Below, piece after piece: positions 3,001-37,854 of a stretch of 39,138 nucleotides of DNA (position 1 is the stretch's first letter; each line of letters begins with the position of its first letter). The position numbers and the translations under genes were made by a program. Where the stretch lies: UHGV virus genome UHGV-0198113; one strand, given 5' to 3'. This DNA is from a virus. The notes below the pieces were generated by a model that saw nothing but the letters and a program-made list of their open reading frames with translations, was not told the DNA's origin and ran no database searches.

Positions 3001-4472
3001 AAATCGCCAAACACGTGGGTGTGGTTAGACAATGCTTTGTTCTTTAAAACATTTGTCAGTGCTTTTGTTACTGGTTTGTTAGCCGGACTGGTATTGTCCA
3101 TTTTATCGATGCCGAAATCCGTTTTCGTTAACGTCAATACCATGTTCTCACCGGTCTTAACAAATCCTTTACCGTTAATGGTGTAATCATCATCGACGTA
3201 CAAGTCTAACCGGTCTTTTAATTCAGTAACGGCTTTTTGGGATATTGCTGTACCCAACGCAGCTGATGTTGCGATATTCGTAATAGAGAACAATCCGTAA
3301 ACCGACTCAGACGCCGTAGGGATATTTGCATTTAACGTCAATGGGTTGGATTGTTTCGATGTACCGTACGCTTTCACTGTGTCTGAAGACGAGAAGTACG
3401 CATTAGCTTCCAGCAACGTCACCGATGTTAAGTACATGTTCACCATGTCTGGTGTAACCAGATACACGGAGTTATACACTGGCGCTAAAACATCTTGCTC
3501 GGAGCCAGAGTGTACCCAAAGGGTGTTCAACCCAGCGCTGAACTCAACGGCTAAGCCTGATTCATTGTTGTCCTGGTCAGCTTTAATCACTAATGGTTGT
3601 GGTGACGTAATCAACCACTTATCATTTCGGATACTGATTACATGACCGCCTGCGGTTTTGAACGCCAGTTCTTTACCGTTTGAAGCACGCCAACGACCAT
3701 AAACCGTGCCGAGTGTACGGCCCATCAACTGGTCTACGTCCGACTGCTCAATTCCCGCAGAACCCATCAACGTTGCGAGTTCATCTAACGTTCTGTTGAA
3801 AGCTTTTGTCGCATCTACGGCACGCCCCAACACAGGCAGTGCACCAATGTCTTCAGTCGTGTAGTTGTGAACATTAGGGTTCAAATGGTGCTGATAAAGC
3901 TCTTCGTCAAAAACCTTCTTACCGTTTTCGTAAATCAGATTCGTAACTTCGCTAAAAGCAGCATCCAGTTCAGTGGAACGTTTGATAATCTTTTTACGAA
4001 TATCATCTAATGCTTTTACTACTTCGTCCCTGAGTAGGGCTTCTTCTAAGTTAGCAGGCGGGTCAATAGGCTGTATGACAGGAGCATACGCCATTAATTC
4101 GGACCAATCCACGTTACGCGGATCTTTTAAATCGGTACGAACTAGATACTTGCCAATTTCCGATTGTGGGATACGGTACTGGCGCGCTACACCCAGAATT
4201 TCGTATTCCACCTCAGTGGCAGTCAGTAACATGAACCCGCCGTAAATTTGGTCTTGTTCTGCCTCAGCGAGCTCTTTAAAGTAATAACCTAAATAGTAGT
4301 CCAGACCTTCTATTAAGGTACGACGGCCACCGGCGGCGGACTCGTCAGCAACAGTGAGCTTTAATCCGATACGATAAAAGGGGCCTTCCGGCGGGATGAC
4401 CACGTTAAATCGGTTAGGGTACGTTGACGTATTTAACGTACCGTTAAACAGCGCCGCGTCTTCTCTCGGCAT
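1..4472 (-). CDS. large tail-fibre/tailspike-like structural protein, partial (N-terminal ~1490 codons; C-terminus lies beyond window start)
   Basis: ATG at 4472-4470 preceded by AGGAG (MPREDAALFNG...). Frame spot-checked stop-free at the window start; the only minus-strand track ORFs in this span (1424-1654, 2600-2830) are in another frame. Absent from the ORF track because it has no stop in the window. N-terminus shares the PF(F/Y)...L.V...G.DY motif with the next two genes. Confidence 0.6.
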   Translation of the reverse strand, partial: MPREDAALFNGTLNTSTYPNRFNVVIPPEGPFYRIGLKLTVADESAAGGRRTLIEGLDYYLGYYFKELAEAEQDQIYGGFMLLTATEVEYEILGVARQYRIPQSEIGKYLVRTDLKDPRNVDWSELMAYAPVIQPIDPPANLEEALLRDEVVKALDDIRKKIIKRSTELDAAFSEVTNLIYENGKKVFDEELYQHHLNPNVHNYTTEDIGALPVLGRAVDATKAFNRTLDELATLMGSAGIEQSDVDQLMGRTLGTVYGRWRASNGKELAFKTAGGHVISIRNDKWLITSPQPLVIKADQDNNESGLAVEFSAGLNTLWVHSGSEQDVLAPVYNSVYLVTPDMVNMYLTSVTLLEANAYFSSSDTVKAYGTSKQSNPLTLNANIPTASESVYGLFSITNIATSAALGTAISQKAVTELKDRLDLYVDDDYTINGKGFVKTGENMVLTLTKTDFGIDKMDNTSPANKPVTKALTNVLKNKALSNHTHVFGDLDNVPIGSATVDGLLQLWDAIDTTNDKAVTSRQGWLFAKEIKKVTDKLNTILPAWTVGGAKFGNKNFLPIPALGNYSGFTKNQSYQKGVVGYQQGKVYSLRNASNGVPGTEAIYYGYADINSSNAFENPQQTSVKYHPVGLSKYPGVTLKAILIGGQEAIICLGSDNNRYLVLFNGSMDHAKHTVVCRVTMPVYRNGNPSGTVEQTWNPWPEADDVVLVDDYVYLLRSTVNNSAYAVAAWRLRKADLYTSTTLEFERVTLTGEMGQYGDNLCLRIGQKTEESQSGQFFTYFTPEARAKWTNGHNFVHGPECNHACAVRDSVIRVNHMPTVWFAAADGSQINFRQWATSFTIDTLTGKVTLEGAERFPIKADATTLSFADGSTVETSRKWGGGQANNRCFATFAKPNGTGMMLSCWQVNDADQMPNVSIKGTQGKELFDYLRYDNPNNTSGEGTFTWDKGRGSIYTIGLSHPVGIGGSNKVWLSNPRNRYTIEVEVDPNTPYNVPGYSGYGPNNNRREVDPTLYEQLSCMAACMTPEERHGQLNGWYLTKAETFPYRNIYGNFALSSERLTLEEADRQKMIRMIVDGAPSGEANGYANERISAAHQTGNALFALWMLGINTVCEFDLLQVSCMKTLDNGRRILDIYYFMVSPSKENGYLRFNSATFKLVDWFLDKDYGLSYQSLNEEAGNKTRRVGQPIFASADGVNFGIWLPYTLTIRNIGDLNALGYAAKYTYDPGSGWTRVPGKSQLRQMAPAHNPESGCYMGAGSWDKMALIYSKADRVFCSGNAYTAAEFVNDTTFSTGGQAVIISGVETAEGWILYLTEEVKLDFGSSSYTLPTWSVDLSNQFPSNHANQTFYVHGEVVGSTAQYQIGLEQLPDNATRLFVGTVTTDSKRIVDINIDKVKRLGRVRELEEHAAVVDQHDVAAAFDRKTGPLQTLVNQPLKAPAASTVKGSGYVDAQKWNSLSALAYKPGIPIQETYAGYKSVSRVAYENVADQFW

Positions 4473-4504
4473 CGTAAAGACTCCTACTTTTAAATAAAAT
4501 GGAT

Positions 4505-4530
4505 ACCCCTCCCTTTTTACAGGGAGGGGT
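4505..4530 (-). terminator. stem-loop (10-bp stem ACCCCTCCCT/AGGGAGGGGT) between two minus-strand giant genes; terminator or attenuator
   Basis: Perfect inverted repeat with 6-nt loop; T-rich tract follows on the minus strand (complement of 4480-4504). Confidence 0.4.
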
Positions 4531-4567
4531 TACCTACGGACACATTACTGCCCGCAGGCAGTCTGTC

Positions 4568-7500
4568 CTAAGTGCGATCCCCTAACTGTTTACCGTTAAG
4601 TTCACGTTTCAGTACAGCTAAAATCCATTTCCACGCTTTGCTCGTGATATGGTACGGATTACGCTTTGTTATCATCACTTGTTCATCGCCGGAACGAACT
4701 TCAAAACTTTGCACGTTCAGTTGATCTTGACGAGTATTGGTTTCATCAAAGATTTCTAAATTGCAGCTGAAGTTCAACTCATACCCCTCTGGGTTGTCGC
4801 CCGGCAACTCAAGGACGATATAAAGGTCTTGGCCTGCCCGTAGATCCACGGGAGTTAAGCTTATTGCTTTACCCACATCAGAAGATGTCGACAAAGCAAA
4901 TTCGACGATGTCAGTTGCAGATAAGAAAGCATCTTTCTGTGCATCACCGATAATCACTTTCCCTGGCCAGTTGCTTTTAATCGTTCCCGACACACGCGCG
5001 ATGCGATAATGTGCTTTACTAACGCCCTGTGCGAATCGCAAGATCAAATTTCCACGATGTTTATCTGATGCAGGCGACGTGGTACTCCACGCGTTATTCC
5101 ACGTAGAGTTCTGAGAAACCAAAGCACCGCGAGCTAACTTACGATCGTAGAACTGCGCAGGTAGTTGACCTTCATGCGACAAAGAAGCAACACCTTGTCC
5201 CAGAGGTAAACCTATTGCTTCGGTAAAACGGAACTCAGATTTAATCTCGTACGATGCGGGGTCTATTGCGGTCTGGGCATAATCGGCATCACGAGCATCC
5301 GAAAGCTGACCGATAGAACTATCTACGTACGATTCAAACAAGCCACGCAAGTAATGATACTTATCAATGTCAATATTAGATGTAACCGGGTCTATTAAAC
5401 CATGGCTAATCGTCAAACGACACTTCTCGCTGAGTTCACTAAACGCCAGCCCAACGCCATCGCCAGCAAAATAATCTACCAAATCAAACGGAAGTTGGAA
5501 CTCTACTTGGCGTTGTTTAACCGCTGTTGTGTTAAACTGCGAGAAAGAAAGTGCTAATCGTAAGACACGAGTTTGAACATTATAACGGTAACGTATCATT
5601 CCCCTTGGGGCGTGAACAGGAGAAATCTTATCCTTGCTTACACCCCAACCTAAAAGGTCAAGAATTGCTGGATTAGTTTCATCGCCATTAAATAACACGT
5701 CTTTGGTAGTTGCAGAAACAGCGGTCTCATTTGCTGTTTCCATCAACATCACCCCATCGTTTGTTTCAAACGTTTTGTACCACGTCTCATTAGTACGCAC
5801 CGTACCAACACCCACTTTGCAGGTCTTATCCGTAAGATTAAAACGAACGTATCGACGTCCTACAGAACTACCTTGTGAACTAGCACAGAGTATAAGATCT
5901 GGAGCTGCTGTGAGTGCTTTTGTCCCGCCAACATCATCAACATCAAAAACAAACGACCCTTCGAATGTGGGGGCACTATTTTCTTTAGGGTTGAATGGTG
6001 TAAACCAACAATACGGCGTTGCACCTTCGGTCGAGAAAATTAGCTGTAAAGCAGTTTTAACATTTAGCCCATGCGAATAAGTAAGCAAACCGCGACTCAA
6101 GCTTACAGCAGTCCCGCCACTTCCCGCCGTTAGCATCTTACGATAAACCAACGCACGTGGTTCGGGAATAGCGCGGTTCAATAACGGTAATCTGGGGTTA
6201 TCTGTCAGCGACCAGTCGACCACTTTTAACCCGTGGGCGTTTCGCGTGGTCACATGGTTGCCAATTTCTGCACTTGTACCAAAGTCGAAAGTGGTGTCGA
6301 AAGTTACCGTCTTATTCGCGTAATTTTCGCCTGCGTAAACATCTACGTATCCGATAAAACCGCGCTCAGGATCAACCTGGTTTGATTCGATCGGCTCAGC
6401 ACGAGAATACAGAGAACCTGTGAGCATGTTAACGTAAAGATAATGACGAATCCCAACATGTGTTGTGACGAAATCGGCTAACAACTCTACGTGTGTTTCG
6501 GGACCACTGAAATATACAGGGTAATCACCGTCATATATCTCAAACTGCACCGCAGCTGATTTTGCCGTGTCGCTACATTCCGCTTTTATTGCAACAACAT
6601 AGTTCTCGACGTTTGGTGAAGTTTCGTAAACAGTTAATAATGGCGATTCACCGGAGGCAACTTGCACACCGTTAATGTACACGGTTACGGGGCCACCACC
6701 GGCAGCATAAACCCATAGCTTAGACTGGTACGCTTTGACCCGAGCTTTAGCAAGAACAGTAATTACAGACTGATCACCCATTTGTGTTGCTGTCTTTCCA
6801 ACAGGCACAGAGTGATAGCCCATTAACGGTGGTTCATCAATACCGTCCCAAGTAATTCCTGTTCCTTTGCTAACTTTTGCTTCCGGCCAGGTAGTTTCAA
6901 GCTGGTTATTTGGCGAAAACCAGTTGAACATTGGCGTTGTCTGAAGATCAATTGCACCGGTCAGGGTAGCTTCGTCTTTGTTACCATCAAACAAATAAAA
7001 GACTTTCAGATCCTGTACGGTTAAAGCAGTACCTTGACTATTAAACCGCCACTGCGCACCTTGTACCGCAGCAAAATCTGTTACCGTACCTTCTTTCGCA
7101 TTTGCAATCGCTGCGGCAACAACTTCAAGCCTTGCAGAAAGTTCTTTGAGAATATTAGGCACTACAGCCCGTCCCTCGACTAAGCCATTTTGGTTAGTCG
7201 CATAACGACCTATACCGTAAATGGATTGAGAAGCCTTATAAATGCCTAATTCTGACCACTCGTGATGGTGGTTCTTTTCCGCAAGTCCTTCAACTGCCGT
7301 ACTTAGAGCCGAGGACAGCGGTTTATCAACATCGGCGGTATTGTCAGCATGTTCCAATCCTAACTCTGCTTTGGTAATCTGGCGAGAACCGTCGTTCATC
7401 GCCTTACCGTTTAGCAGCGTCGTTTTCGGCACATACCCGGACAAGTCCGTTGAGTACGGTGTCAGTGACCCCGGTGTTGCTGCAACGCCCGTTGTTTCCG

Positions 7501-8758
7501 TTCCTTTACCGGTTTTCAGTTTAGCGACGCCTTTTTCAGTCAGAGTCGCTTTTTGAGGGTCGATAACCCCTACGATAGGGTCAGCGCGTGAACCTTTACC
7601 CGTAAAGCTAATTCCGTTGCGACCCTCGATATACACTTTAGTGTCATCAGGGTCATTACCACCTGTCCCTTCGTCAGGGTCTTGTTGGTATTCCATTAGT
7701 GCAGTCGTTGTAAGCAACGGGTTGCCGTTTAAGGTGAGTTTATTCATCCCTAAGGCATCGCCTGTTGATTCAATACGCAACGTGTTCTTACCTGCACGCC
7801 ACTGTATGTAACGACCCGCACCTGTTCCTTCCAAGTGCCCGACCGCCAACACAACTGAACCGTTTGACTTCAACGTAAAACCATCGTTCGCAAAAATGAT
7901 TTCAGATTCACCATTTTTAGAACTGAATTGTGCACGGTTTCCTGACACCGTACAGTTGAAATTCCCATAGACCTCATCAGAAATCCAATGAGAAATATAG
8001 GTGTCAACTACCGATTGTGGTAAACGGAATGCTTTTAGTTCTTCCGTTAACGCTTTCAGACGTAAACCGTAAGCCATAAAGGTATCCGGCGTTTTGAGAT
8101 TCACCGGATGAGCTTCGATTTGTGCTACGGTTGTTTCATGAGGATTCTTTGCCGCGATATGTGCTGGGTAATTAAATGCTTGAATTTCTTTACCCAGAGC
8201 AACAACGAGTGCTTTAACCTCGGCCAGTTTATCTTTAATCAGTTGGTTTGCATCATCGGTTTTTAATTCGATATCATGAACCGCAGACGCAAGATATTTT
8301 TTATTCAGCAAATCTGCCCAAGACGTTGCAGCAGGTGTTGCTGGATAAAGCGACGGACGACCTTCTAATAACAACCAATCCGCACTAGTCGGGTTATTGA
8401 GATGTTTTACAAGCTCATCCAGAATTTCTACAAACGGATCGTAAAACGTTCCACCGAGCATTTGTCCTTCAAAAGTAACTAAACCTTTGATGGATGGGTT
8501 GATAAGGTGTACCCCACAATACACGTTGGCTGCTACCGAGTCATCCAGTTCCGTCAGCTGATATTGCAGTTCGTAATCTACCCCACGGCTCAGTGGGGTA
8601 GTTGAACCCGGCTGCTTAACGACCAGATTTTCAAAGAACGGGCGATGATCCAAAATCACCACCCGATCGTTGTTGTTTTCTGACCCGATGATACGCTCCT
8701 CTAAGAAGTGATTCTCGGCTTTCGTCCCCCGAGGATCGTAAGGATACGCTTTCATCAA
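4568..8758 (-). CDS. giant structural protein (1396 aa), tail-fibre/tailspike-like
   Basis: Track ORF; AAGGAGA RBS 8 nt upstream inside the end of the preceding gene; N-terminal 'HRPFFENLVVKQPG...GVDYELQY' motif shared with neighbours; Gly/Thr/Asn-rich composition typical of fibres. Confidence 0.8.
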   Translation of the reverse strand: MMKAYPYDPRGTKAENHFLEERIIGSENNNDRVVILDHRPFFENLVVKQPGSTTPLSRGVDYELQYQLTELDDSVAANVYCGVHLINPSIKGLVTFEGQMLGGTFYDPFVEILDELVKHLNNPTSADWLLLEGRPSLYPATPAATSWADLLNKKYLASAVHDIELKTDDANQLIKDKLAEVKALVVALGKEIQAFNYPAHIAAKNPHETTVAQIEAHPVNLKTPDTFMAYGLRLKALTEELKAFRLPQSVVDTYISHWISDEVYGNFNCTVSGNRAQFSSKNGESEIIFANDGFTLKSNGSVVLAVGHLEGTGAGRYIQWRAGKNTLRIESTGDALGMNKLTLNGNPLLTTTALMEYQQDPDEGTGGNDPDDTKVYIEGRNGISFTGKGSRADPIVGVIDPQKATLTEKGVAKLKTGKGTETTGVAATPGSLTPYSTDLSGYVPKTTLLNGKAMNDGSRQITKAELGLEHADNTADVDKPLSSALSTAVEGLAEKNHHHEWSELGIYKASQSIYGIGRYATNQNGLVEGRAVVPNILKELSARLEVVAAAIANAKEGTVTDFAAVQGAQWRFNSQGTALTVQDLKVFYLFDGNKDEATLTGAIDLQTTPMFNWFSPNNQLETTWPEAKVSKGTGITWDGIDEPPLMGYHSVPVGKTATQMGDQSVITVLAKARVKAYQSKLWVYAAGGGPVTVYINGVQVASGESPLLTVYETSPNVENYVVAIKAECSDTAKSAAVQFEIYDGDYPVYFSGPETHVELLADFVTTHVGIRHYLYVNMLTGSLYSRAEPIESNQVDPERGFIGYVDVYAGENYANKTVTFDTTFDFGTSAEIGNHVTTRNAHGLKVVDWSLTDNPRLPLLNRAIPEPRALVYRKMLTAGSGGTAVSLSRGLLTYSHGLNVKTALQLIFSTEGATPYCWFTPFNPKENSAPTFEGSFVFDVDDVGGTKALTAAPDLILCASSQGSSVGRRYVRFNLTDKTCKVGVGTVRTNETWYKTFETNDGVMLMETANETAVSATTKDVLFNGDETNPAILDLLGWGVSKDKISPVHAPRGMIRYRYNVQTRVLRLALSFSQFNTTAVKQRQVEFQLPFDLVDYFAGDGVGLAFSELSEKCRLTISHGLIDPVTSNIDIDKYHYLRGLFESYVDSSIGQLSDARDADYAQTAIDPASYEIKSEFRFTEAIGLPLGQGVASLSHEGQLPAQFYDRKLARGALVSQNSTWNNAWSTTSPASDKHRGNLILRFAQGVSKAHYRIARVSGTIKSNWPGKVIIGDAQKDAFLSATDIVEFALSTSSDVGKAISLTPVDLRAGQDLYIVLELPGDNPEGYELNFSCNLEIFDETNTRQDQLNVQSFEVRSGDEQVMITKRNPYHITSKAWKWILAVLKRELNGKQLGDRT

Positions 8759-8768
8759 AAAATTCTCC

Positions 8769-11700
8769 TTAATCGCGAATAATCACCGCGTTGAGTTTAT
8801 TGTTTTCACCCAAGAACGACATGACACGCTCCTTGTTCAGATAAGGAGGGATCGGTAACGCGTTATAATCGGCTAAATTATCATCAAACTCTTTTGCTAC
8901 CAGCGCGTTTAGCGTCTCAGGATCTGAGCTTGGGCCAGCTGTCTCAATGAGGCGTGCGCGGTTTAATGCAGAATAGTTAGCGATATAATCCAATAGCGTT
9001 CCGTACGATTTATTTGCTGTTATGCTATCAGCAGTGGTACGGAGGTTGGCGCGTACCTCGTCGTCATAAAGTCCCCCTAAACCGTAATAGATAGGGGTAT
9101 AAGGATCGTTAACAATGGGTGAAATATCTAACTCACCTAGACGATCAGTTAACGAAATTTTCTGAGTTGTTCCGCCCGCTGCGGTGCAGCTTACGTATTT
9201 ATCTACATCTGACAAATACACAACGATGGTATAAACCGTTCCTGCTAGTGTTAACGTCGCATTAAACGTCACATCGTTGTTCGCGCCGCGTCTGTGGGTA
9301 AATGTGATATCGGGTTGTAATGTACTCCAAGGGGCAGGTGTAACACGCTTCGTTGGTGTAAAACCAAGAACAACCGATTTCCCATTAGCGAAGTTTAACC
9401 CGAAACCTGCGTAACAATATTCGCCCTTACTGTCAGTTAAGCGGTAGCCCCTTGTCACTAAAAGAGACAAGCGAACAAACTCATTGGCATTATTCCGCCA
9501 ACAACCTAAAATCGTTTCAAGCACTGTGCCCGTTTTTGCGTTACTCTCCGTTTCCCAAGTTACACGAACACCTGCGTTCGAGAACAGCGGGAAAAGATTG
9601 TGAATAAATCCATGAACATTATCACTAACTCCCTTTGGATCAAATATCCACTTCGAAGCTAAGGAATCGTATTTTACGCCGTCGAGTGCTTTATACGTAT
9701 TCCCCATCGCAAATCGCCAATCAGCCTCACCACGTGTTACTGCTTGTAAGCCTGAAGCCCAGCAGGGCGCACCCACTGTTAAATTGCGCAAACCTAGAGC
9801 TGCACGTGGCGCACTTCTCTGAATATGCGCATTGTCGTTAGCAATATGTTCTGACAATTCCCGGAAATCACCTAAACGGGTCACGTTACGCAACTCGGTT
9901 AAGTACACTTCTGAGATATCGTTGACGCCAATCATCCCCACACGGGTCATGGTATCCGTTTCGGCTTGACTGTAACTATCGTGAATAACATAAGTCGCCC
10001 GGTTATCGACAATATCAACAAACACCCCAGCAACAATTTCCGTATTCAGTTTTGGAAAGCGCTCAGCAGTGTTTACTGTCATTAACGGCACTTGATACGT
10101 TTCCCCACCAATGAAATACGTTGTGGCGGGTAACGTAACCAGTATCTTGTCTTTTACCGTAACTTCGATTAAGTCGTTCCCAGTTTCACCGTAACGGATG
10201 ATGTCAATTCGGGCACCCGAATCTACGTTACCTACTGTTGCTTCCAGCTTCTCAATTCGAGCTGTCTGATCCATCACCACACTAGCGTCTAAAGCCAGCG
10301 TTGCATCATCGACGGCTAATCCGAATTTAATTAACCCGCGTTTATCCGTTGTTGCGTTTTCCACTCCAAACGCTGTTGACGGGTGGCGGTGAACCTTCGG
10401 TGAATATTTATCCAACTCTGTTTGTTGTGCAACAGAAATAGGTAAATCGACGTCAGGTGTGTTTGCAACGTTACCTAGGTTAAAGGTGATTTTGTCGATG
10501 GTAATAGAGCTGGTTAACGGCATGTCGTTAATGTACGATTTTACCGCGACCAATTTACCCGTAAACTCAGCATCGAGTTTTGTAATCAACGCAGGCGTCG
10601 CTGCCAGATTTTCCGCAGTACCGAACTCATCGGTTAACTGCCATCCGGCTAAGGACGTCGTATCCGTTGCGGTAGGGAGGACAAACGTTGCCACAAACGG
10701 TGACGCTTTTATTCCGTTACCTGTAATGGTTACCGTTGCTGTCGAGTTTGCGTAGAATAATCCTGTTCCACCCGCGGTATTACCTGGTAGGTAAGGCCCT
10801 ACTGTGGTGGGGTCTAAAAGTTTCTTACCACGCCACTGCAAGCCACGATCGTCAGCGTACAATACCAGCTGATTAGTCCCTGCCTGGAAAGTTACGGGGT
10901 TATTCCCTGCATTAACTTCGGTTGAACCTTGGCCAATAAACTTAATGGATTTCGGGTCAACGGCAAACTGAGCACCTAAACGGGTCTCGTCAACAACATC
11001 CGGCGCTTTCTTAATGGTAACCGTGTTACCTTTGTTTTGCGAGATAATGCTGACACTATCAGCAACGTTGTTAATCAACGTTTTAAAGTGATGTTGGTTC
11101 TCTAACGCTTCTAGCGCAGCATCCATGTTAACGAAGTTGACACGAGCGCTGTACGTCTTACCATTCACGGTAACAACGATATCAAATACGTTCCCCGTAC
11201 GTTTTAATTGGAAACGTAACGTAAAATCATCGTCAGGTATTGCAGGATCGGCGATTTGAGAAACATATTGGACTTCCGGCTGCGGATTAGCATAACCGTT
11301 CAGTTGTAAACCGATACTGACTCGACCTGACAGAACTTCACCGGTAAGTTGAATGAATTTGCCAGAGTTACTACCAGGATTTTCATAGAAGCGTAAACCA
11401 ACCATACCGACTGCTTCATTACCTGACGCTGTTTTACGTCCGGTGACAATGAAGTCAATATCTTGCAGGTTGGCAGGTACTCCATTAAAATAAGTACCAA
11501 ATCCATTCTTCGTTCCCGTATAACGAAGTGCGCCATGATACGTGTAACCATTGCTAACATAGCTTTCGCTAAAATAAGGGTTCACGTACTTAGACATCGA
11601 CACCGGATCAACTTCCGTCGTAAAGGACGTAAAGCCTGGCAGTGTTCTGATAGTTCCGTCAACCGTTTTGTTAGCTGCGGTGCGTAGCAGTTTATTCTGC

Positions 11701-13091
11701 GCTGTCAGTGTTGCCTGCGTCGGGTATTTACTGTTAACGTAATCCGTTAACTGTTGTTTCGTTTTCCCGTAAGCCAAAGCAGCATCTGACGCGATACCGT
11801 TTAACTCTAACGCACGAATCGGTCCCCACGTATCGACGTGTGGGTTATCTTTACGGGTAACGTGCTCGTGAGCTGGTGCGTTGCGGTAAAGCTGTTCCAC
11901 CAACTGATGGTATTTGACAATCAGCTGATAAACGTCATTGCTTACGTCGGCGTCTGGCGCACCAGGTAACGCAAGGAATTGTGCATAATCGTTTTCAGCC
12001 GCCCACCAGTTTAGATTAACGTTGGTTTTATATTTCAACCATTTCGCAACATCTGTTTTGCTATAACCTGCTGAGAATTCGGATGGTGGGTTATCAACGT
12101 TGAACGTGTAGTCCATCGTCTGTTTGTTAGTCGTCACCTCGATAACATACACACCGTTACCAGGCTGACGAACAACACTAAACGTTAACTCACCTTTCAA
12201 TTCGCTGTCGGTCAGTCCGTTGATTAGCGTATAGTCGTAATCGGTTGAGCCGCTTCCTAACGCTACGGTCAGGCGCAAAGAGATTTTACGCTGCTTTAAT
12301 TGAAGACGAAGGATACTTGCACCGCCATTCGCGTAGCACAACATCCAATCGATTTGTTCATTTGGGTTAATGCTTCCCATGTTCGGGAAAATACCAGGAA
12401 TACGGTATTTCATCGACAGGGAGTAGTCATTTAACGTCGTGGTTTTGTACGTAACGGCAAAACGGCGTTTTGTAGTGTTGTACGTATAACCGCCTTTGTT
12501 ATCGTACGTTGCATACTGTTCTGACGTGATAACCGTGCCGTTAGCACGATGCTCAATATCTAACGTGTTACGTGCAATCGGGTCTAACCGATTTACAACG
12601 TTACCTAAGGAGTCGCCTAAGCCTGCGATGGCTTGCATTAACTCCAGTTCACCTTTCCAGTTTTCCCAATCGAACTGAATGTCAACGGGTGGAAAGTAAA
12701 CGTCCCCGATAACGGTGTCCCATTGACACGTAGACGGGTATTTATCTTTATTTAACTCACGCTCTGCGCTAATCTGCTGCTGTGTGGCTTCACCACAACC
12801 AACGGCATGATAATCCACAGTAAAATTCGACTTGTATTTGTCGTTAACAATCCAAATCATCCCGTGAATGAGATAGGCTGTGCGCAACATACCTGTCTCG
12901 TACGGGTGTGTAATTACGTAATCGTCGCCTAAGGTCAGTGTTTTGCCGCCGCTCTTGACCACCAGGGACGTGGTGAAAAAAGGGGCGTGGGCAGGTACCA
13001 ACATTCGGTACTTCGTACCAATGACGGCGACCGCTTCACCGGTTATTTTATTCCCCGGTTCTTTGAAGTGTGGGTCTAGGACGACAGCCAT
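8769..13091 (-). CDS. giant structural protein (1440 aa), tail-fibre/tailspike-like
   Basis: Track ORF; AGGAG RBS; N-terminal 'HAPFFTTSLVVKSGG...GDDYVITH' motif; stops 10 nt before the next gene starts (operon). Confidence 0.8.
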   Translation of the reverse strand: MAVVLDPHFKEPGNKITGEAVAVIGTKYRMLVPAHAPFFTTSLVVKSGGKTLTLGDDYVITHPYETGMLRTAYLIHGMIWIVNDKYKSNFTVDYHAVGCGEATQQQISAERELNKDKYPSTCQWDTVIGDVYFPPVDIQFDWENWKGELELMQAIAGLGDSLGNVVNRLDPIARNTLDIEHRANGTVITSEQYATYDNKGGYTYNTTKRRFAVTYKTTTLNDYSLSMKYRIPGIFPNMGSINPNEQIDWMLCYANGGASILRLQLKQRKISLRLTVALGSGSTDYDYTLINGLTDSELKGELTFSVVRQPGNGVYVIEVTTNKQTMDYTFNVDNPPSEFSAGYSKTDVAKWLKYKTNVNLNWWAAENDYAQFLALPGAPDADVSNDVYQLIVKYHQLVEQLYRNAPAHEHVTRKDNPHVDTWGPIRALELNGIASDAALAYGKTKQQLTDYVNSKYPTQATLTAQNKLLRTAANKTVDGTIRTLPGFTSFTTEVDPVSMSKYVNPYFSESYVSNGYTYHGALRYTGTKNGFGTYFNGVPANLQDIDFIVTGRKTASGNEAVGMVGLRFYENPGSNSGKFIQLTGEVLSGRVSIGLQLNGYANPQPEVQYVSQIADPAIPDDDFTLRFQLKRTGNVFDIVVTVNGKTYSARVNFVNMDAALEALENQHHFKTLINNVADSVSIISQNKGNTVTIKKAPDVVDETRLGAQFAVDPKSIKFIGQGSTEVNAGNNPVTFQAGTNQLVLYADDRGLQWRGKKLLDPTTVGPYLPGNTAGGTGLFYANSTATVTITGNGIKASPFVATFVLPTATDTTSLAGWQLTDEFGTAENLAATPALITKLDAEFTGKLVAVKSYINDMPLTSSITIDKITFNLGNVANTPDVDLPISVAQQTELDKYSPKVHRHPSTAFGVENATTDKRGLIKFGLAVDDATLALDASVVMDQTARIEKLEATVGNVDSGARIDIIRYGETGNDLIEVTVKDKILVTLPATTYFIGGETYQVPLMTVNTAERFPKLNTEIVAGVFVDIVDNRATYVIHDSYSQAETDTMTRVGMIGVNDISEVYLTELRNVTRLGDFRELSEHIANDNAHIQRSAPRAALGLRNLTVGAPCWASGLQAVTRGEADWRFAMGNTYKALDGVKYDSLASKWIFDPKGVSDNVHGFIHNLFPLFSNAGVRVTWETESNAKTGTVLETILGCWRNNANEFVRLSLLVTRGYRLTDSKGEYCYAGFGLNFANGKSVVLGFTPTKRVTPAPWSTLQPDITFTHRRGANNDVTFNATLTLAGTVYTIVVYLSDVDKYVSCTAAGGTTQKISLTDRLGELDISPIVNDPYTPIYYGLGGLYDDEVRANLRTTADSITANKSYGTLLDYIANYSALNRARLIETAGPSSDPETLNALVAKEFDDNLADYNALPIPPYLNKERVMSFLGENNKLNAVIIRD

Positions 13092-20280: not shown

Positions 20281-20736
20281 ATGAAAACTTTTATCGCATT
20301 CTTAGTAACCCTTTTAACTTTCGGTCTCAATAACGCTTACGCCGCAATCGGAAGCTGGGAAGGACTTCAAAGTCCGGGAAATGCTGTTTACGAAATCGAA
20401 GACGAAAATGGGAACAGCTTGTCTATCAACTGCGATACCGCAACGGCTAATCGTAAGTTTTACGGTCGCATGGTTTGGTATTACGGTGAACCGGTCGGTT
20501 CAACTAATGCCGAAGACAACGAAATGAGTATTGTCGTAAACGGCAAAAACTATATCATTCCCACTATTGACGGCAGCGACAAAGCAGAAAAAGCTTGGGT
20601 TGCCTTCGCTAATGCTATCGCTAATGCAAAAAGCTTCGGTGTGGCTATCAACGGTAACGAAGCCGCTAACTTTATTGTAGATGGTGAGCGTCTGCCCGAA
20701 ACTTTCTTTAAGAACTGTGGACATAGCCGTCCTTGA
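20281..20736 (+). CDS. small exported protein with signal peptide (151 aa)
   Basis: Track ORF; AAGGAG RBS; N-terminal hydrophobic signal 'MKTFIAFLVTLLTFGLNNAYAA'; two Cys; paralog of the next gene. Confidence 0.8.
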   Translation: MKTFIAFLVTLLTFGLNNAYAAIGSWEGLQSPGNAVYEIEDENGNSLSINCDTATANRKFYGRMVWYYGEPVGSTNAEDNEMSIVVNGKNYIIPTIDGSDKAEKAWVAFANAIANAKSFGVAINGNEAANFIVDGERLPETFFKNCGHSRP

Positions 20737-20773: not shown

Positions 20774-21244
20774 ATGAAACTGTCTAACATCTTCTTAGCT
20801 ATCGTTTTAACTGTAAGCGCCACTGCTGCACAGGCCATTCCGAACATGTGGGGTAGTGGCTTTGCAATGGGTGAAACCGAGTATGGTATCGATAACGGTG
20901 GATGGGGTATTACCATTAGCTGTACCGGTAATCCAGATGAAAACAACATTTTACCACACAAGATCTTTATCTCTAAAGATGGTAATGTGGTGGCCAACTC
21001 GGAAGATAACGACATTAGTTTCGTTATCGATGGTGAAGAGTTCTGGGGTGTAGTTCCTGACGGCACACGTAATACCGACAATACTTGGGTTAGTTTTGTA
21101 AAAGCAATCTCTACAGCAACTGAGTTTGACTTATACCTCGACCAGAAAAAGGTTGCTACCTTTAACCCATCAGCCAAAAACGTTAAGAAAGTGATGGACG
21201 GTAACTTCCTCGAATCTTGCTGGAACACCGAATACGAACAATAA
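20774..21244 (+). CDS. small exported protein with signal peptide (156 aa), paralog of 20281-20736
   Basis: Track ORF; signal 'MKLSNIFLAIVLTVSATAAQA'; shared segments (I-x-C, SEDN/AEDN, VVNG/VIDG, WV[AS]F, C near the C-terminus). Confidence 0.8.
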   Translation: MKLSNIFLAIVLTVSATAAQAIPNMWGSGFAMGETEYGIDNGGWGITISCTGNPDENNILPHKIFISKDGNVVANSEDNDISFVIDGEEFWGVVPDGTRNTDNTWVSFVKAISTATEFDLYLDQKKVATFNPSAKNVKKVMDGNFLESCWNTEYEQ

Positions 21245-24290: not shown

Positions 24291-24320
24291 ACACCACACT
24301 CCGTGATTATGGAGGTGGGT

Positions 24321-26825
24321 ATGCTAAAAGTTGAACGTATTGTACTCAAAGGTTTTACGGGGATGGGATTGCACGAAATTGAAACGTTCGATTTCACTAT
24401 CCAGTCACCGACAACGATTATCCTGGGTGGGAACGGTTGTGGGAAGACCAGTTTACTGTCCGTATTTTTGCCCTTAGCTCCGGCTAAAACAGAATTCAGG
24501 GATGGGGGTTCTTACACGAATTATTGTTTAGTCGGCGATCAACGTTACCGTTTCAAAGTTGCCCGTAAAGGCAACTCGTTGGTTTGCGATATTGAGAATC
24601 TCACTACGGGAACGAAGATTGTCGAGCAAGGTAACGCAAAGGTTTACAATTCACGCGTTGAAGAAATCACTGGTATTACGAAAGAAATTAAAGAATTGTT
24701 AAACGGTGAGGTGTTGTTAACGGACGCGGGAACGGAATTACGTCGTAAATGGTTTTACCGTTTAAGTACCTCTGACCTTACTTACGCGCTAGGGTTCTAT
24801 CAGAGATTGCGGAAAAACCTCACCGTCTTAAACGGTGGCATTGAAATTACCAGTCGTAAGATCGCAGAGTTACGAACACGTGTTATTGAAAATGAAGAAG
24901 AACGTCAACAGTTAGCGGTAAGATTAAAAGGCTTGGAATCGGATTTACGCGAACTGAACCGACAAATCGAACAGCTACCGGGTTTAAATCGTGGCGTTAC
25001 TATCGAATCAATCCAGGCGTTATTAAACGGCTTAGGTCCAACTATCGACGCAATATTACAACATCGTGGTGGTTTGCCTACCGACGAACAGATACTGAAC
25101 GCACGACACAATGAAGCCACAGCACGCGAAGCTGTCGTTTCAGCAGAAACGGAAGTATCAATGTTGAATAAAGATCTGTCGTTATTGATGGACGAGTCAA
25201 CGCGACAGGATTACCTGATGCGCAATCACGAGGGTCTCAAGAACACTCTCGCACGTTTACGTGAAGTGCTTACCAAATGGGACACCGAGCATCTCTTTCC
25301 TGGACTGTTTAGTGAGAGTGCGAATTTAGACCAGCTACGTGCTGCAACCGATGCACGCGTTTGGGGCCAACGACTGGGAACAACACTGGACGCCATTCAT
25401 TCAACCGAAAAGCTCAACGTTTTGGAAGAACGTCTACTGGTGATGGATCAGAAGACCGCAGGATTGCGAGATAGACTCCAGCGCGTAGAGAATGTTTTAC
25501 AAAACTTGAACCACGAACGAAATCACTATCTGGAAACAGCAGAAGTAGATTGCCCGCAATGTCGGTTTAAATTTCGACCTGGGGTTACGCGTTCTTTGTC
25601 TGAACTTGAAACCTCGATTAGAGGCCAACAGCAACAACGTACGGAGCTTCAAACACAGTTAGACAGTATATTACGCGATCGTGTCGAACTGGAATCTGAT
25701 GTAACGTATATGCGTCAGGTTCGTGAAATCGTGTTGACGTACTCAAAGGACCCGGTTTTAAGCATGTTCTTTAAGTGTCTACAAGAACGTAATGTCTTTA
25801 CAGAATCACGCGAACAGTTCGGAAGTCTCTGCGCGGCTTTTGACAGTGAGCTGTATTCTGCTATTGAATATCATGAAACCCGTCAACGGTTAGTGAAGGC
25901 AGAAAAAGAATGGCAAGATGCGGTAGCTGCTGTGGGTAACGTCGATGGTGCTTTACAACAGAAAATTGCTTTCCAACAATCGCGTTTAGGTAAAGCCACA
26001 GAAACGCTCTCAGTGCGTCGTAGAGAGCACGAGTTAGCTAATACGACACTTACCTATCTAGAGAGCGTTAAACGTGCTATAGACGATTTTAGCGCGTTAT
26101 TCGAACGGTTAGAGAATGACGTTAAGGTTACTTTGACAAACACAGTTGTCGAAGAACTCTTACGGGCACGAGAAGGGAAACTGGATGCGTTTACGACAGC
26201 ACGTGAGCGTTATCGTCAAATGGAAAGTGAACTGAATCAGCTCAATACGTTGGAACGCGAACTTGCGGATTTACAAGCCCAGCAGTTTAATAACAAATTG
26301 ATGATTCAGGCGTTCTCGCCAGAAAAAGGTGTACTCAGAAAGTATTTTTACAATGCTATCGTCAGAATCACAGAGTTAATGACGCGCTATATCGAACAAG
26401 TCTGGACGTACCCCATGCGAGTTATGCCTTGTGATCTCACCGACGGTGATTTGGATTATACTTTTCCTGTCCAACTAAAAACACATCCTGAACCCGTTCC
26501 TGATGTGCGTAAAGGGTCTAAGGCACAACGTGCTATATTCAATCTGATGTTCAGACTGACTGCGTATAAAGCGTTGAAATTACATCAGTTTCCTTTGCTA
26601 TTGGATGAACCCTCAGAGGGTATGGACGAAGAACACCGTAATAACCTGGTTGGTTTTATTAAAACGTTAGCAAACTCAGGGGAGTTCTCGCAGTTACTGG
26701 TGGTCTCCCACGAAGCTGAAGTCCATTCTAAACTTAACGAAGCATCGTACTGTGTCATTGAACCGGAAGGGGTGACATTACCTGCGGTGTATAACGAGGG
26801 AGTAAAAATTGTTTATGCAAACTGA
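24321..26825 (+). CDS. Rad50/SbcC-like SMC-family ATPase with coiled coil and CxxC zinc hook (~834 aa)
   Basis: Track ORF 24303-26825 trimmed to the ATG 5 nt after GGAGG. Walker A 'GGNGCGKTSLL'; mid-protein 'CPQC' hook within predicted coiled coil; C-terminal Walker B/D-loop 'LLLDEPSEGMDEE' and 'LLVVSHE'. Confidence 0.8.
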   Translation: MLKVERIVLKGFTGMGLHEIETFDFTIQSPTTIILGGNGCGKTSLLSVFLPLAPAKTEFRDGGSYTNYCLVGDQRYRFKVARKGNSLVCDIENLTTGTKIVEQGNAKVYNSRVEEITGITKEIKELLNGEVLLTDAGTELRRKWFYRLSTSDLTYALGFYQRLRKNLTVLNGGIEITSRKIAELRTRVIENEEERQQLAVRLKGLESDLRELNRQIEQLPGLNRGVTIESIQALLNGLGPTIDAILQHRGGLPTDEQILNARHNEATAREAVVSAETEVSMLNKDLSLLMDESTRQDYLMRNHEGLKNTLARLREVLTKWDTEHLFPGLFSESANLDQLRAATDARVWGQRLGTTLDAIHSTEKLNVLEERLLVMDQKTAGLRDRLQRVENVLQNLNHERNHYLETAEVDCPQCRFKFRPGVTRSLSELETSIRGQQQQRTELQTQLDSILRDRVELESDVTYMRQVREIVLTYSKDPVLSMFFKCLQERNVFTESREQFGSLCAAFDSELYSAIEYHETRQRLVKAEKEWQDAVAAVGNVDGALQQKIAFQQSRLGKATETLSVRRREHELANTTLTYLESVKRAIDDFSALFERLENDVKVTLTNTVVEELLRAREGKLDAFTTARERYRQMESELNQLNTLERELADLQAQQFNNKLMIQAFSPEKGVLRKYFYNAIVRITELMTRYIEQVWTYPMRVMPCDLTDGDLDYTFPVQLKTHPEPVPDVRKGSKAQRAIFNLMFRLTAYKALKLHQFPLLLDEPSEGMDEEHRNNLVGFIKTLANSGEFSQLLVVSHEAEVHSKLNEASYCVIEPEGVTLPAVYNEGVKIVYAN

Positions 26826-33894: not shown

Positions 33895-34398
33895 ATGGGT
33901 TCATTTCTTAAAGTGCTTCCGTTCTTCCTTCAGATGTTAATGGAAGCATTTAAACCAGGAGAAGGAGAAAACGTATCAAGAGCAAGCAAGATAATGACTT
34001 TAATCATCACGATCTTGTTATCATATTCGGGCTTCGTCTCCTACGCGTATGTGCAACAATTTCACGCACTCGTTTCGGTGCAGTCTCATGACGCATATAT
34101 GACGCAGTCTTATCAAGAGATGAAACAAGATCGTGATAAGCTGAAAGAAGATAATGGCAAGTTATACGACAGACTCTTCGTTTGTCTCGGCCAGAAACCG
34201 CCATATGAAAGCACGTTCAACCCATCGAAAGAGAGCGGTTCGACGAAGGATCTGACGCCAACAAAACCAGAAACTCCTGTTAGTCCGGCTTCAACACCAG
34301 AACAACGCAAAGAAGCATCGGCGAGACCTGTGGGTAGTTTAGATGCAAACAGTTTTCGACAGGAGATTATAAAGACGCTAACGTCTGCTAAGGAGTGA
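33895..34398 (+). CDS. membrane-anchored protein with periplasmic coiled-coil-like and Pro/Thr-rich region (167 aa); i-spanin-like architecture
   Basis: Track ORF; GAGGTG RBS; single TM 'IMTLIITILLSYSGFVSYAYV' (res ~33-53) then 'SYQEMKQDRDKLKEDNGKLYDRL'. Confidence 0.65.
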   Translation: MGSFLKVLPFFLQMLMEAFKPGEGENVSRASKIMTLIITILLSYSGFVSYAYVQQFHALVSVQSHDAYMTQSYQEMKQDRDKLKEDNGKLYDRLFVCLGQKPPYESTFNPSKESGSTKDLTPTKPETPVSPASTPEQRKEASARPVGSLDANSFRQEIIKTLTSAKE

Positions 34399-34401
34399 TT
34401 G

Positions 34402-34857
34402 ATGAAAACGCTGTTATTCATCATGGTTGTATTCATGGGTTTGGTGAGTAATAGCTACGGCGAAGAGGTCAGACGGGCAGCTTATCGTCCATTGGAACCT
34501 CCTCCGACACCACCCATCATGGTGAATTGGAAAATTGACAAAGATGCAATGCGTGAGTATGTTGCAGACGTCAACACCTATGCTTATTACGTTTATGTCT
34601 ACACACGAAATTTAAATCAGCAAGCCGCTAAACGTGGCTGGAGCCCTCCGATGTTGGCTCCACTCTGCGAACGTTATGAGTTACCGAAATTACATGTTGT
34701 GCCTGAACGTTTATCACTCGATGAAAGTTCCTTAACGCCGCAAGAAATTAGTCGGGACTTATCACGAAAACTTAACAGTTTGTTGTGGAATTACCGTTCT
34801 GACCGTCAGACCTTACTCGATTCGTACAATCAATACTTGACGACGTGTTTGTACTGA
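34402..34857 (+). CDS. exported Pro-rich protein (~151 aa)
   Basis: Track ORF 34399-34857 trimmed to ATG 6 nt after AAGGAG; signal-like 'MKTLLFIMVVFMGLVSNSYG'; 'PLEPPPTPP'; no lipobox Cys. Confidence 0.65.
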   Translation: MKTLLFIMVVFMGLVSNSYGEEVRRAAYRPLEPPPTPPIMVNWKIDKDAMREYVADVNTYAYYVYVYTRNLNQQAAKRGWSPPMLAPLCERYELPKLHVVPERLSLDESSLTPQEISRDLSRKLNSLLWNYRSDRQTLLDSYNQYLTTCLY

Positions 34858-34861
34858 CACT

Positions 34862-34902
34862 CCCTCCTGTATCCTTCGGGATACAGGAGGGTCTTTCTTT
34901 TT
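34862..34902 (+). terminator. rho-independent terminator with C(UUCG)G tetraloop
   Basis: 13-bp stem CCCTCCTGTATCC/GGATACAGGAGGG, TTCG loop, followed by TCTTTCTTTTT. Confidence 0.85.
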
Positions 34903-34946: not shown

Positions 34947-35681
34947 ATGACTTATCCAAAAATCGTTCAGCCGTATACCCCAACTCTGGTTATTGGTGCT
35001 GATGCAGAAACCAAATCATTACGTCCTGATGCTTATTTGTTAAGCGCGGGATTAGTGGCTTTTGACGTCCCTACGTTGAAAATGGTGGGGTCCTCGTATA
35101 TTCGTATCGACCCTAACGATCCTAAAGCAAAAGCAATTTTCCACGAAGACCCGCAAACTGTTGGATGGTGGGAAGGTAAAGGTGAACCAGAATACGCACC
35201 GTCTCGTGAAGCGTATGAAGAAGCCTGGGGTGGGACGACAGCGTTGCCTGATGCGTTGTGGGCAATGCAGAAGTGGCTCGGAGAAATCACCGCAAAACAC
35301 GAATTTGTTATTACCATGCGCGGCCCTGATTTCGATGCGCCGATTTTCATGAACGCGTTTGCACAATGCGATATTCCACCAGGGAAATTCCGTAAGTTCA
35401 GTGCACTGGATAGCGATCGTACCGCAGAACGTTTAGCATTTGCGTTTGGTTTCGAGCCTGATTTAACCGTAGAGCAAGTTTACTGGACACGCGGTAAACC
35501 GGCTTTTGAACACCACGCTATGTGGGATGCGGCAAAAGAAGCCTACACCACGGCACGTATTTATCACCTCGCTTTGGTCACCCGTGAATACGGGTTTGAA
35601 CGTGCCAAAGCCTGTCACGAAGAACTGAAAACCGGCGAGTATATTGCGCCACAGATTCGTGATCAATTAACCAGGGATTAA
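34947..35681 (+). CDS. DEDDh-type (DnaQ-like) 3'-5' exonuclease (244 aa)
   Basis: Track ORF; GGAG RBS; Exo I 'LVIGADAET', Exo II 'RGPDFDAPIF', Exo III 'EHHAMWDAAKEAY' (H-x4-D). Confidence 0.7.
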   Translation: MTYPKIVQPYTPTLVIGADAETKSLRPDAYLLSAGLVAFDVPTLKMVGSSYIRIDPNDPKAKAIFHEDPQTVGWWEGKGEPEYAPSREAYEEAWGGTTALPDALWAMQKWLGEITAKHEFVITMRGPDFDAPIFMNAFAQCDIPPGKFRKFSALDSDRTAERLAFAFGFEPDLTVEQVYWTRGKPAFEHHAMWDAAKEAYTTARIYHLALVTREYGFERAKACHEELKTGEYIAPQIRDQLTRD

Positions 35682-35683
35682 GA

Positions 35684-37204
35684 ATGAAGAATGTTGATGT
35701 TGCTGTAATTTACACGGACGGTAGCCATTTGACTTCCCCGCTCGGTACAGGAGCGGGGATTCATGGGTACTTATTTAATCGTGAAGTGATTGAGGATGGT
35801 CGGGTTTACCGCCATCCCTCTATTCCCGAGGGGATTACGACGTCGGGATACCGCCAGATAAACAAGGATGAAAAACTCCCTCCTTTGCCAGAAACCGTGG
35901 AGTTTATTGACGGCGTTGTTCCTGTACCAAAAATGTCACATTCTGACGTTGCAGAACTCGTGGCTTTTCTAACTGTTTTCGAACACGCGCCCTTCGTTGC
36001 GAAAAACTATGTTATCTATATCGACGCTTCTTACGTTGTTAACACGTATAACGATTGGATTGATGGTTGGGCAGCACGAGGATGGCGTCGTGCAGACGGT
36101 ACACCCATTGCGAACTTGGAACTAATCCAACGGATGTGGGAAGTCAAACAGCGGTTAAAGAAAGAAGGGAAGGGTATCCGTGTCCTTAAAATTAAAGGTC
36201 ACTCAGGTCGTTATGGAAATGAACGTGCAGACGAACTAGCACGGAAAGGTTCAAGTATCTCTGCGCGTGGCGAAGGGTTAGACTATACACCGTATTGGTC
36301 AAAAGACGAGATGCCTGAAGAAGATCAGCAACCGGAAGTTGTTGGTGAAGGCGTCAATTTATCTGCATTCCCTGAAATCTGCGTCACGAAGTTTTGTTAC
36401 CCGATGGTAAATGAACCACACCCCACGGTTACTGTAAACGGTGAGAAACTGTATTACATGTTTGGCGGGAACCACGCAAAACAGAAAGACGATATTGTCT
36501 TCGTCGGGAAATACATCCCTGATGCGCAGTTCTGCGTGATGTTTACCAAAGAACCGTGGACTAACGTATACGAGTTAGTAAACACCCACTCTGCAAAAGC
36601 ATGGGAAGGTGTACCACGTTTACGTCAGTTTGATCCCATCGCAGTGGTTTTTAACTTATTCGTAAAACGTAAGAAGTTTGCAGAAGCCGCAGGTAACGGT
36701 ATCCCTATCGACAGAATGCACTTTAGCGAAGACAAAAACTTGTGGATGTTTGAAGATCTTTCGATTACACGAATTCTTCGTCCTGCGTTATTGTCTTATC
36801 GCTGCATTGCAATTCGTGATGAACTTGCAGGTTGGTTACGTGATGCAATGGAGCAGAAAAACTCGGTAGTGTTAAACGATATTACCGACATGCTTTACGA
36901 TGAGAAAGGTAAACCGAAGAAAGACTTTTATCGTAACGTAGATAAAGGTTTTGATGTAACTATCCATATCCCTGGAAGCAAAAACAAGGTTAAAGCCATC
37001 CTTACTCGTGGTATCGATGTTCCAACACGTACGGAAATTAACCGCTTAAAAGAACCCGAAGGTCGTTTTTACGTGGCTGTCCGTCGTCCAGAACGTCAGT
37101 ATATCGAGTATGCATTGGTTTATATCGGGGAAAAATATCATGGATTGTGGTGCGGTTATTATTCAAACAAACGAATATTGACAGATAAGGAGCTTGAATG
37201 CTAG
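35684..37204 (+). CDS. RNase HI-like domain (N-terminal ~195 aa) fused to a ~310-aa C-terminal domain of unknown function
   Basis: Track ORF; motifs in order matching E. coli RNase HI catalytic residues: 'VIYTDGS' (D), 'VAELVAF' (E), 'YIDASYV' (D), 'KGHSGRYGNERADELAR' (H, D). Confidence 0.8.
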   Translation: MKNVDVAVIYTDGSHLTSPLGTGAGIHGYLFNREVIEDGRVYRHPSIPEGITTSGYRQINKDEKLPPLPETVEFIDGVVPVPKMSHSDVAELVAFLTVFEHAPFVAKNYVIYIDASYVVNTYNDWIDGWAARGWRRADGTPIANLELIQRMWEVKQRLKKEGKGIRVLKIKGHSGRYGNERADELARKGSSISARGEGLDYTPYWSKDEMPEEDQQPEVVGEGVNLSAFPEICVTKFCYPMVNEPHPTVTVNGEKLYYMFGGNHAKQKDDIVFVGKYIPDAQFCVMFTKEPWTNVYELVNTHSAKAWEGVPRLRQFDPIAVVFNLFVKRKKFAEAAGNGIPIDRMHFSEDKNLWMFEDLSITRILRPALLSYRCIAIRDELAGWLRDAMEQKNSVVLNDITDMLYDEKGKPKKDFYRNVDKGFDVTIHIPGSKNKVKAILTRGIDVPTRTEINRLKEPEGRFYVAVRRPERQYIEYALVYIGEKYHGLWCGYYSNKRILTDKELEC

Positions 37205-37854
37205 TTGTTTATAGCGAAGTCATGACAAAAGCCCCTCGGTACCTTCAACAACGTTTCTTAGAAACGGCTAATCGTAAATGGGGCTTTCGCGCCCCTTATT
37301 CCGACGAAACTCTAGAGTTGGAGCAGCTTGCTTTAGGCTTCTCCTTACAAGCGCTATGGGGTGTGATAGGTTTACGTAATGCGGGGTGCGATCCACTGGA
37401 TGATTATTTCTCAGTAGCACGGATACGTAGTGTTAATCCTGAACGTCTCCACGCCCCGCTTACTGAAGAATGTATCGGATATGTAGAAGGAACACCAGAG
37501 CTACGAAAGGACTTTAATACCGCTTGCTGCAAGCTGTGGTCGGAACTCGACCGTTATCCCGGCGAAATCGTTTGGTTAGATCGTCGTACGTGCTTAACGG
37601 AAATAGGGATAAATTATCCTGTGCGTTTGGTTTCATTAAACGTAAATGACCTGACCGCAGTAAGAACCTCCGCGCCAGAAGAAATCACCCCTTCCCCTTT
37701 GCGCTATTCGTTATTTAAACAAGGTGATGCGTGGATACTTCCACCTGACCTAAACCAATACCTTCTAATGTCCGACCAGATTCATTCTGGGTACGACGCA
37801 ACAGTTACGGAGTATGCCCTCGATTTCGACTTCGCTAAAAAGTTTCTTAGATAG
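37198..37854 (+). CDS. hypothetical protein (218 aa)
   Basis: Track ORF; start overlaps the stop of the previous gene (ATGCTAG), suggesting translational coupling. Confidence 0.65.
   Translation: MLVVYSEVMTKAPRYLQQRFLETANRKWGFRAPYSDETLELEQLALGFSLQALWGVIGLRNAGCDPLDDYFSVARIRSVNPERLHAPLTEECIGYVEGTPELRKDFNTACCKLWSELDRYPGEIVWLDRRTCLTEIGINYPVRLVSLNVNDLTAVRTSAPEEITPSPLRYSLFKQGDAWILPPDLNQYLLMSDQIHSGYDATVTEYALDFDFAKKFLR

Follow-up and report, generated by a model that had tools for sequence, protein, structure and literature searches.

Several lines of published work define the system closest to the gene considered here, a reading frame at positions 35684-37204 of the virus genome UHGV-0198113, which was analysed as one stretch of 39,138 nucleotides and is referred to below as the window. 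PhiKZ-like phages were reported to have neither a classical sliding clamp nor a primase but to carry RNase H1 without exception, and no clamp loader was found in the group (Iyer et al., PMC7824862). The PhiKZ protein gp155 (PhiKZ155, Nlp2) is imported into the phage nucleus and has served as the imported cargo used to select import mutants. It was described as the nuclear-located product of a core, essential gene of nucleus-forming phages and as a bona fide RNase H in vitro, whose D102N mutant still complements; when PhiKZ155 or PhiPA3 gp176 is silenced, the nucleus does not mature and the genome is not amplified (Gerovac et al., Nature 2025, PMC12571901). Two October 2026 preprints give the family the name Rhc, for RNase H-clamp (PMC13648698, PMC13648687). 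According to these, Goslar Rhc is the essential third subunit of the split B-family polymerase DNAP-N/DNAP-C/Rhc, and its RNase H catalysis is required (PMC13648698); for the PhiKZ complex, cryo-electron microscopy (cryo-EM) shows one Rhc subunit that holds the duplex, jointly with the polymerase thumb, as the duplex emerges. A flexible connection attaches the RNase H domain, and primer extension is strongly boosted (PMC13648687). In both phages the C-terminal domain (C-domain) is presented there as a DNA-binding module derived from a sliding clamp, which attaches to the phage DNA polymerase and increases synthesis.

The gene at 35684-37204 is very probably an orthologue of Rhc, a core protein of the nucleus-forming jumbo phages (Chimalliviridae), acting as in PhiKZ and Goslar. 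Directly seen here are an undamaged gene with an intact RNase HI site and, in the model, a flexible linker; both domains are homologous to those of PhiKZ gp155 and Goslar gp190, and the fold search gives a clamp-like signal. By orthology we infer that the window protein would bind the polymerase, contribute to its processivity, act on RNA targets and localise to the nucleus. The initial annotation, made from the sequence alone, had described the gene as an RNase HI domain fused to an unknown C-terminal domain; the fusion is not new, as the family entered the literature in 2025-2026, and the window protein is a divergent member of its SPN3US/Erskinevirus branch.

Orthology to the Rhc family

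The window protein matches phrog_3265 ('ribonuclease') from end to end (E 1e-169). It is 67% identical to gp226 of Erwinia phage Asesino and 64% identical to its counterpart in the SPN3US-like Salmonella phage SPFM19, and gp207 of SPN3US is the same gene. More distant PhiKZ-like phage proteins align along its whole length; both PhiKZ gp155 (BLASTP E 7e-30 over residues 5-494) and Goslar gp190 (BLASTP E 9e-26) are collinear with it. The C-domain alone finds 132 phage records by tblastn, including Goslar (E 2e-8), PhiKZ155 (E 4e-4) and PhiPA3, and in the alignment D114 of the window protein is the counterpart of D102, the residue changed in the PhiKZ catalytic mutant. Thus the window gene shares with PhiKZ gp155, Goslar gp190 and PhiPA3 gp176 an RNase HI domain, a linker and a C-domain of about 270 amino acids in one chain of about 500, and with PhiKZ and Goslar Rhc homology of both domains, the catalytic residues and the local synteny. 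Megablast of the locus against the phage genome collection gave no match, so the phage is without a close sequenced relative in that collection.

A synteny comparison in related phages, proposed by the initial annotation, revealed a common gene order in PhiKZ, Goslar, SPN3US and Asesino, in which a minus-strand gene for a virion structural protein is followed on the plus strand by one or two small genes, Rhc and a further small gene. Asesino and SPN3US, the nearest relatives of the window phage, form a phage nucleus (PMC13282480). Chimallin is not among the genes of the window.

A profile of the C-domain retrieved 518 cluster representatives among 1.84 billion proteins, and the identical 506-residue protein occurs on 13 independent public metagenomic contigs, which include contigs of 0.2-1 Mb; therefore the fusion is ancient and conserved, and no assembly artefact. 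Nearly all of the best 150 of the 518 representatives are 450-560 amino acids long and have the C-domain at the C-terminus. Conservation was assessed on 135 full-length representatives, each standing for one cluster at 50% identity. The D-E-D-D tetrad is kept in 128 of them (95%), and the other seven lack one or more catalytic residues yet retain the C-domain. As far as sequences tell, such a distribution agrees with a family that cannot do without the C-domain and preserves RNase H catalysis as a rule, though with exceptions. The C-domain itself has nearly invariant positions (T401 and R449, 99%; P367, 96%; G275, D445 and D399, 89-91%), and K276 and R373 are lysine or arginine in about 80%; most of the top conserved residues lie at or beside helix starts in the model.

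The family also includes unusual architectures. Members that have lost RNase H residues include P0059, P0061, P0127, P0052, P0140 and P0064, and one of the seven, P0061 (585 amino acids), has an N-terminal Macro domain (PF01661). Another homologue, P0144 (668 amino acids), has an I-TevI-type DNA-binding domain ahead of its RNase H domain; the extension could be a homing-endonuclease remnant, or the gene call could run through a mobile insertion.

RNase HI domain, linker and C-terminal domain

The presence of a full set of RNase HI motifs in the first 195 residues or so, as noted by the initial annotation, is borne out by independent searches. The Pfam model PF00075 scores 75.1 bits over residues 81-190 (E 7.9e-21), well above its curated threshold of 25.8, and phmmer matches RNase H1 chains of E. 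coli and of human at about 1e-11. The catalytic residues are D12 (in YTDGS), E91, D114, H173 and D183 (GHSGRYGNERAD), the tetrad and the histidine being invariant or nearly so among 36 close homologues. The N-terminal domain belongs to the RNase H fold; it is a genuine RNase HI domain with an intact active site and, judging by its residues, looks active. It shares the tetrad, the histidine, the basic protrusion and PF00075 with cellular enzymes such as E. coli RnhA and human RNASEH1, but differs from them in a 310-residue C-terminal extension, in scores below the NCBIfam equivalog cut-offs, and in a conserved insert that separates the first catalytic Asp from the Glu. The enlarged spacing had been noticed initially and now has a size: the distance between the two residues is 79 positions, compared with 38 in the E. 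coli enzyme (standard numbering D10/E48/D70/H124/D134), and therefore the insert comprises about 41 residues. Its T52, G55 and Y56 are conserved family-wide, and the PhiKZ and Goslar orthologues also have the insert.

The distinction drawn at the outset from the classic phage 'RNase H' also stands. Neither Pfam nor PHROGs gave a match to a FEN-type 5'-3' exonuclease or PIN-like domain, and no PF02739 or PF01367 signal was seen. The T4-type enzymes of that family resemble the window protein in the presumed removal of RNA primers during phage replication, whereas their fold and catalytic site are unrelated to it.

The two domains are joined by an acidic linker, whose confidence in the model is low at residues 209-218; the predicted template modelling score (pTM) is 0.56 for the full-length model versus 0.84 for the C-domain modelled alone. 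On these models the linker is predicted to be flexible. The C-domain received a confident AlphaFold2 model, with a predicted local distance difference test score (pLDDT) of 87.7 when modelled alone.

The C-terminal region of about 310 residues, in which the initial annotation recognised no motif, has no match in Pfam or NCBIfam, and a profile search of the C-domain against PDB sequences gave only a chance match at E 1.2. Pfam searched with 12 C-domains at E values up to 10 returned nothing, so the domain is not a member of a clamp sequence family. The best and most consistent structural neighbours of its model are nevertheless sliding clamps: HUS1 (fold-search score 6.7, 188 residues aligned), MEC3 (6.0), Ddc1 (5.6), RAD9 (5.6 and 5.5), the African swine fever virus clamp and T4-type gp45 (5.3 each) and RAD1 (5.2). 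The same clamps recur in the search with the full-length model, ranked after RNase H matches. The Z and template modelling (TM) scores are weak. Foldseek against the PDB gave nothing at E <= 0.001 for the C-domain, its five best, non-significant matches all being PCNAs, and when the first and second half of the C-domain were compared by hhalign the probability was 0.15%, so that the internal duplication typical of clamps was not detected. Hot-dog and UTRA-type folds were matched too, but with only 64-97 residues aligned, and were so set aside. Overall, the model points to a clamp-like fold through a signal that is consistent but weak. Given this likeness at the fold level, the C-domain is no longer unknown, although it is still without a sequence-family match; a match to a well-known replication protein domain, which would speak against the initial annotation, is indicated at the level of fold and is absent at the level of sequence.

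The nearest structural neighbours of the C-domain are thus sliding clamps and clamp-fold processivity factors, a group that comprises PCNA, 9-1-1, T4 gp45, the beta clamp and herpesvirus UL42/UL44/PF-8. The C-domain is comparable in size to a two-domain clamp monomer and, by analogy with its orthologues, may share the role of holding duplex DNA for a polymerase. The herpesvirus clamp-fold factors need no loader and are the closest analogy to the C-domain of Rhc. Unlike clamps, this domain lacks sequence-family membership and a detectable internal repeat, its similarity scores are weak, and it is covalently joined to a nuclease; moreover, the PhiKZ preprint reports Rhc as a single subunit and not a ring (PMC13648687). 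The suggestion of the initial annotation that the fusion couples cleavage of RNA:DNA hybrids to a second activity is in agreement both with the polymerase-docking, DNA-binding clamp derivative described for PhiKZ and Goslar and with our fold search.

Gene layout and neighbouring genes

The Rhc frame is a single uninterrupted one of 506 codons (Table 1). The stop codon of the upstream exonuclease gene (TAA, 35679-35681) is separated from the Rhc start codon by two nucleotides, and the ATG of the downstream gene lies inside the 3' end of Rhc, which it overlaps by seven nucleotides, the Rhc stop being TAG at 37202-37204. A terminator-like hairpin stands between the gene at 34399-34857 and the exonuclease gene and closes the upstream unit; since it precedes the exonuclease gene, a new transcription unit starts behind it with the exonuclease gene, followed by Rhc and the downstream gene. 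In the clade of the window phage, Rhc is probably co-transcribed with both of these neighbours and translationally coupled to them.

Table 1. Coordinates of the Rhc gene, its domains and adjoining features in the window
Feature	Coordinates	Strand	Details
Intrinsic-terminator-like hairpin	34862..34891	+	13-bp stem (8 G-C pairs), TTCG loop, T-run
DEDDh 3'-5' exonuclease gene	34947..35681	+	244 amino acids, Rv2179c-like; PF16473, phrog_255
Rhc orthologue (RNase H-clamp)	35684..37204	+	506 amino acids plus stop; phrog_3265 over full length
RNase HI catalytic domain, residues 1-195	35684..36268	+	Catalytic residues D12, E91, D114, H173, D183; basic protrusion WAARGWRRADGTPIAN
Family-specific insert in the RNase HI domain, residues ~32-75	35777..35908	+	Spacing comparison and conservation; also in PhiKZ and Goslar
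Acidic linker, residues 196-235	36269..36388	+	pI 4.05, poor conservation, low model confidence
C-terminal domain, putatively sliding-clamp-derived, residues 236-506	36389..37201	+	Conserved Y239, G262, G275, K276, P367, R373, D399, T401, D445, R449
Downstream gene	37198..37854	+	218 amino acids, no assigned function; weak phrog_9472 match only

The initial annotation was right in taking the upstream gene for a DEDDh exonuclease. Its match to PF16473 scores 43.8 bits (E 2.9e-11), above the cut-off of 27, it also matches phrog_255 (E 6e-45), and its motifs D19-x-E21, F-D at D130 and H189-x4-D194 follow the DEDDh pattern (Exo I/II/III with His). No relative was found among PDB sequences. By tblastn the exonuclease occurs in 66 phage records, all of them enterobacterial or Vibrio phages of SPN3US type; it lies directly upstream of Rhc by annotation in Asesino and SPN3US, and for at least seven other genomes the positions of the matches fit this adjacency. 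In contrast to the window, PhiKZ and Goslar have no annotated exonuclease adjoining Rhc. Thus the pairing emphasised by the initial annotation is real in the window, Asesino and SPN3US, but it is a clade-specific operon feature, outside the definition of the family.

On the other side of Rhc, the small downstream partner of the PhiKZ and Goslar loci is not recognisable in the window: the gene at 37198-37854 could not be matched with either PhiKZ gp154 or Goslar gp191. These two genes, directly downstream of Rhc in their genomes (positions 6454-6870 of the PhiKZ locus, L002:6454-6870, and 4225-4653 of the Goslar locus, L003:4225-4653), are homologous to each other (E 3e-8).

Just upstream of the terminator, the window has two small, conserved plus-strand genes, at 33895-34398 and 34399-34857, which match phrog_8719 and phrog_8165, respectively, and hold the same position as PhiKZ gp156.1 and gp156; the second has, by eye, a signal-peptide-like start (MMKTLLFIMVVFMGLVSNSYG). 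Elsewhere in the window, two adjoining giant open reading frames on the minus strand (4568-8758 and 8769-13091; 1396 and 1440 amino acids) encode paralogous virion structural proteins with segments of phrog_8078, phrog_7557, phrog_7449 and phrog_2163 in common. The plus-strand genes at 20281-20736 and 20774-21244 are tandem paralogues, both matching phrog_3429, which has no function assigned, and the gene at 24303-26825 on the same strand encodes an SbcC-like ATPase subunit (phrog_77, E 4e-91), a conserved jumbo-phage gene for DNA-end processing.

Alternative explanations and significance

The assignment of the window protein to Rhc has to be weighed against several points. Its identity to the characterised orthologues of PhiKZ and Goslar is only about 24%, polymerase subunits are not in the window, and the literature is split on RNase H catalysis, which was dispensable in PhiKZ, as the D102N mutant indicates (PMC12571901), and required in Goslar according to the preprint (PMC13648698). 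Among other explanations, the exonuclease and the RNase H fusion might form a self-contained module for primer removal or Okazaki-fragment maturation, in which the C-domain would recruit or position the exonuclease and not the polymerase. The close spacing of the two genes, their common transcription unit after a strong terminator, and coordinates consistent with adjacency in at least nine SPN3US-like genomes, confirmed by annotation in Asesino and SPN3US, speak for such a module. However, in PhiKZ and Goslar Rhc has no annotated exonuclease beside it, the exonuclease is present in 66 phage records versus 132 for the C-domain, the latter is conserved far outside the exonuclease-bearing clade, and the cryo-EM study puts the C-domain on the polymerase and DNA (PMC13648687), so we regard the module as improbable. 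It is very improbable that the C-domain serves chiefly for nuclear import or for docking to the shell, as a cargo signal for PicA/Imp1 with an incidental resemblance to clamps. This would suit the role of PhiKZ gp155 as cargo in the selection of import mutants, the punctum that its fusion to green fluorescent protein gives at the nuclear periphery, like PicA (PMC12571901), and the weakness of the clamp similarity; but knock-down stops genome amplification while import of the non-virion RNA polymerase (nvRNAP) still appears to proceed (PMC12571901), and direct binding of polymerase and DNA and the boost of primer extension are reported from in vitro work in which import is not involved (PMC13648687).

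We find it hardly credible that the C-domain is a canonical closed trimeric ring clamp tethering RNase H to DNA, as PCNA does RNase H2 or FEN1. Its fold matches are to ring-forming clamps with two domains per monomer, and its size is close to that of one PCNA monomer, whereas the PhiKZ cryo-EM report has a single Rhc subunit on the polymerase (PMC13648687), these phages have no clamp loader (PMC7824862), and the low TM-scores point to a strongly remodelled geometry. The artificial fusion of two genes by a sequencing or assembly frameshift, which the initial annotation had named as a possible flaw, is ruled out by the identical protein on 13 contigs and the family-wide architecture. Fragmented or partial versions of the Rhc gene do exist in the Salmonella SPFM phage records P0036-P0040, but hundreds of divergent homologues have the same architecture, and PhiKZ gp155 has been studied as one two-domain protein (PMC12571901 and PMC13648687); the SPFM fragments are probably frameshift errors in those records.

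If the window protein acts as Rhc does in PhiKZ and Goslar, it would be imported into the phage nucleus, and one molecule would bind DNAP-C of the split B-family polymerase via its C-terminal domain. This domain, a putative diverged, non-ring derivative of the clamp fold, would hold on to the duplex that leaves the active site, jointly with the polymerase thumb, and would serve as a built-in, loader-independent processivity factor where the classical clamp and clamp loader are absent. The acidic linker would let the RNase HI domain reach and degrade RNA annealed to the incoming template, either primers made without a dedicated primase or R-loops arising from transcription in the same compartment. 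It is also conceivable, though rather unlikely, that the exonuclease of the SPN3US-like phages is a dedicated fourth replisome component, which would dock on Rhc or the polymerase and either proofread in trans or, once RNase H has cut, trim RNA or DNA at the 3' end. If so, chimalliviruses outside this clade would do the exonuclease's job differently. The clade-specific coupling provides a small, testable lead.

The pattern of variants that have lost catalytic residues bears on the disagreement between PhiKZ and Goslar over the need for RNase H catalysis, and the conservation map offers residues for mutagenesis in the clamp-derived domain (T401, R449, P367, K276 and R373) and in the insert (T52, G55 and Y56). 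Rhc accounts for processive replication in nucleus-forming jumbo phages, which have neither a classical clamp nor a clamp loader nor a recognisable primase.

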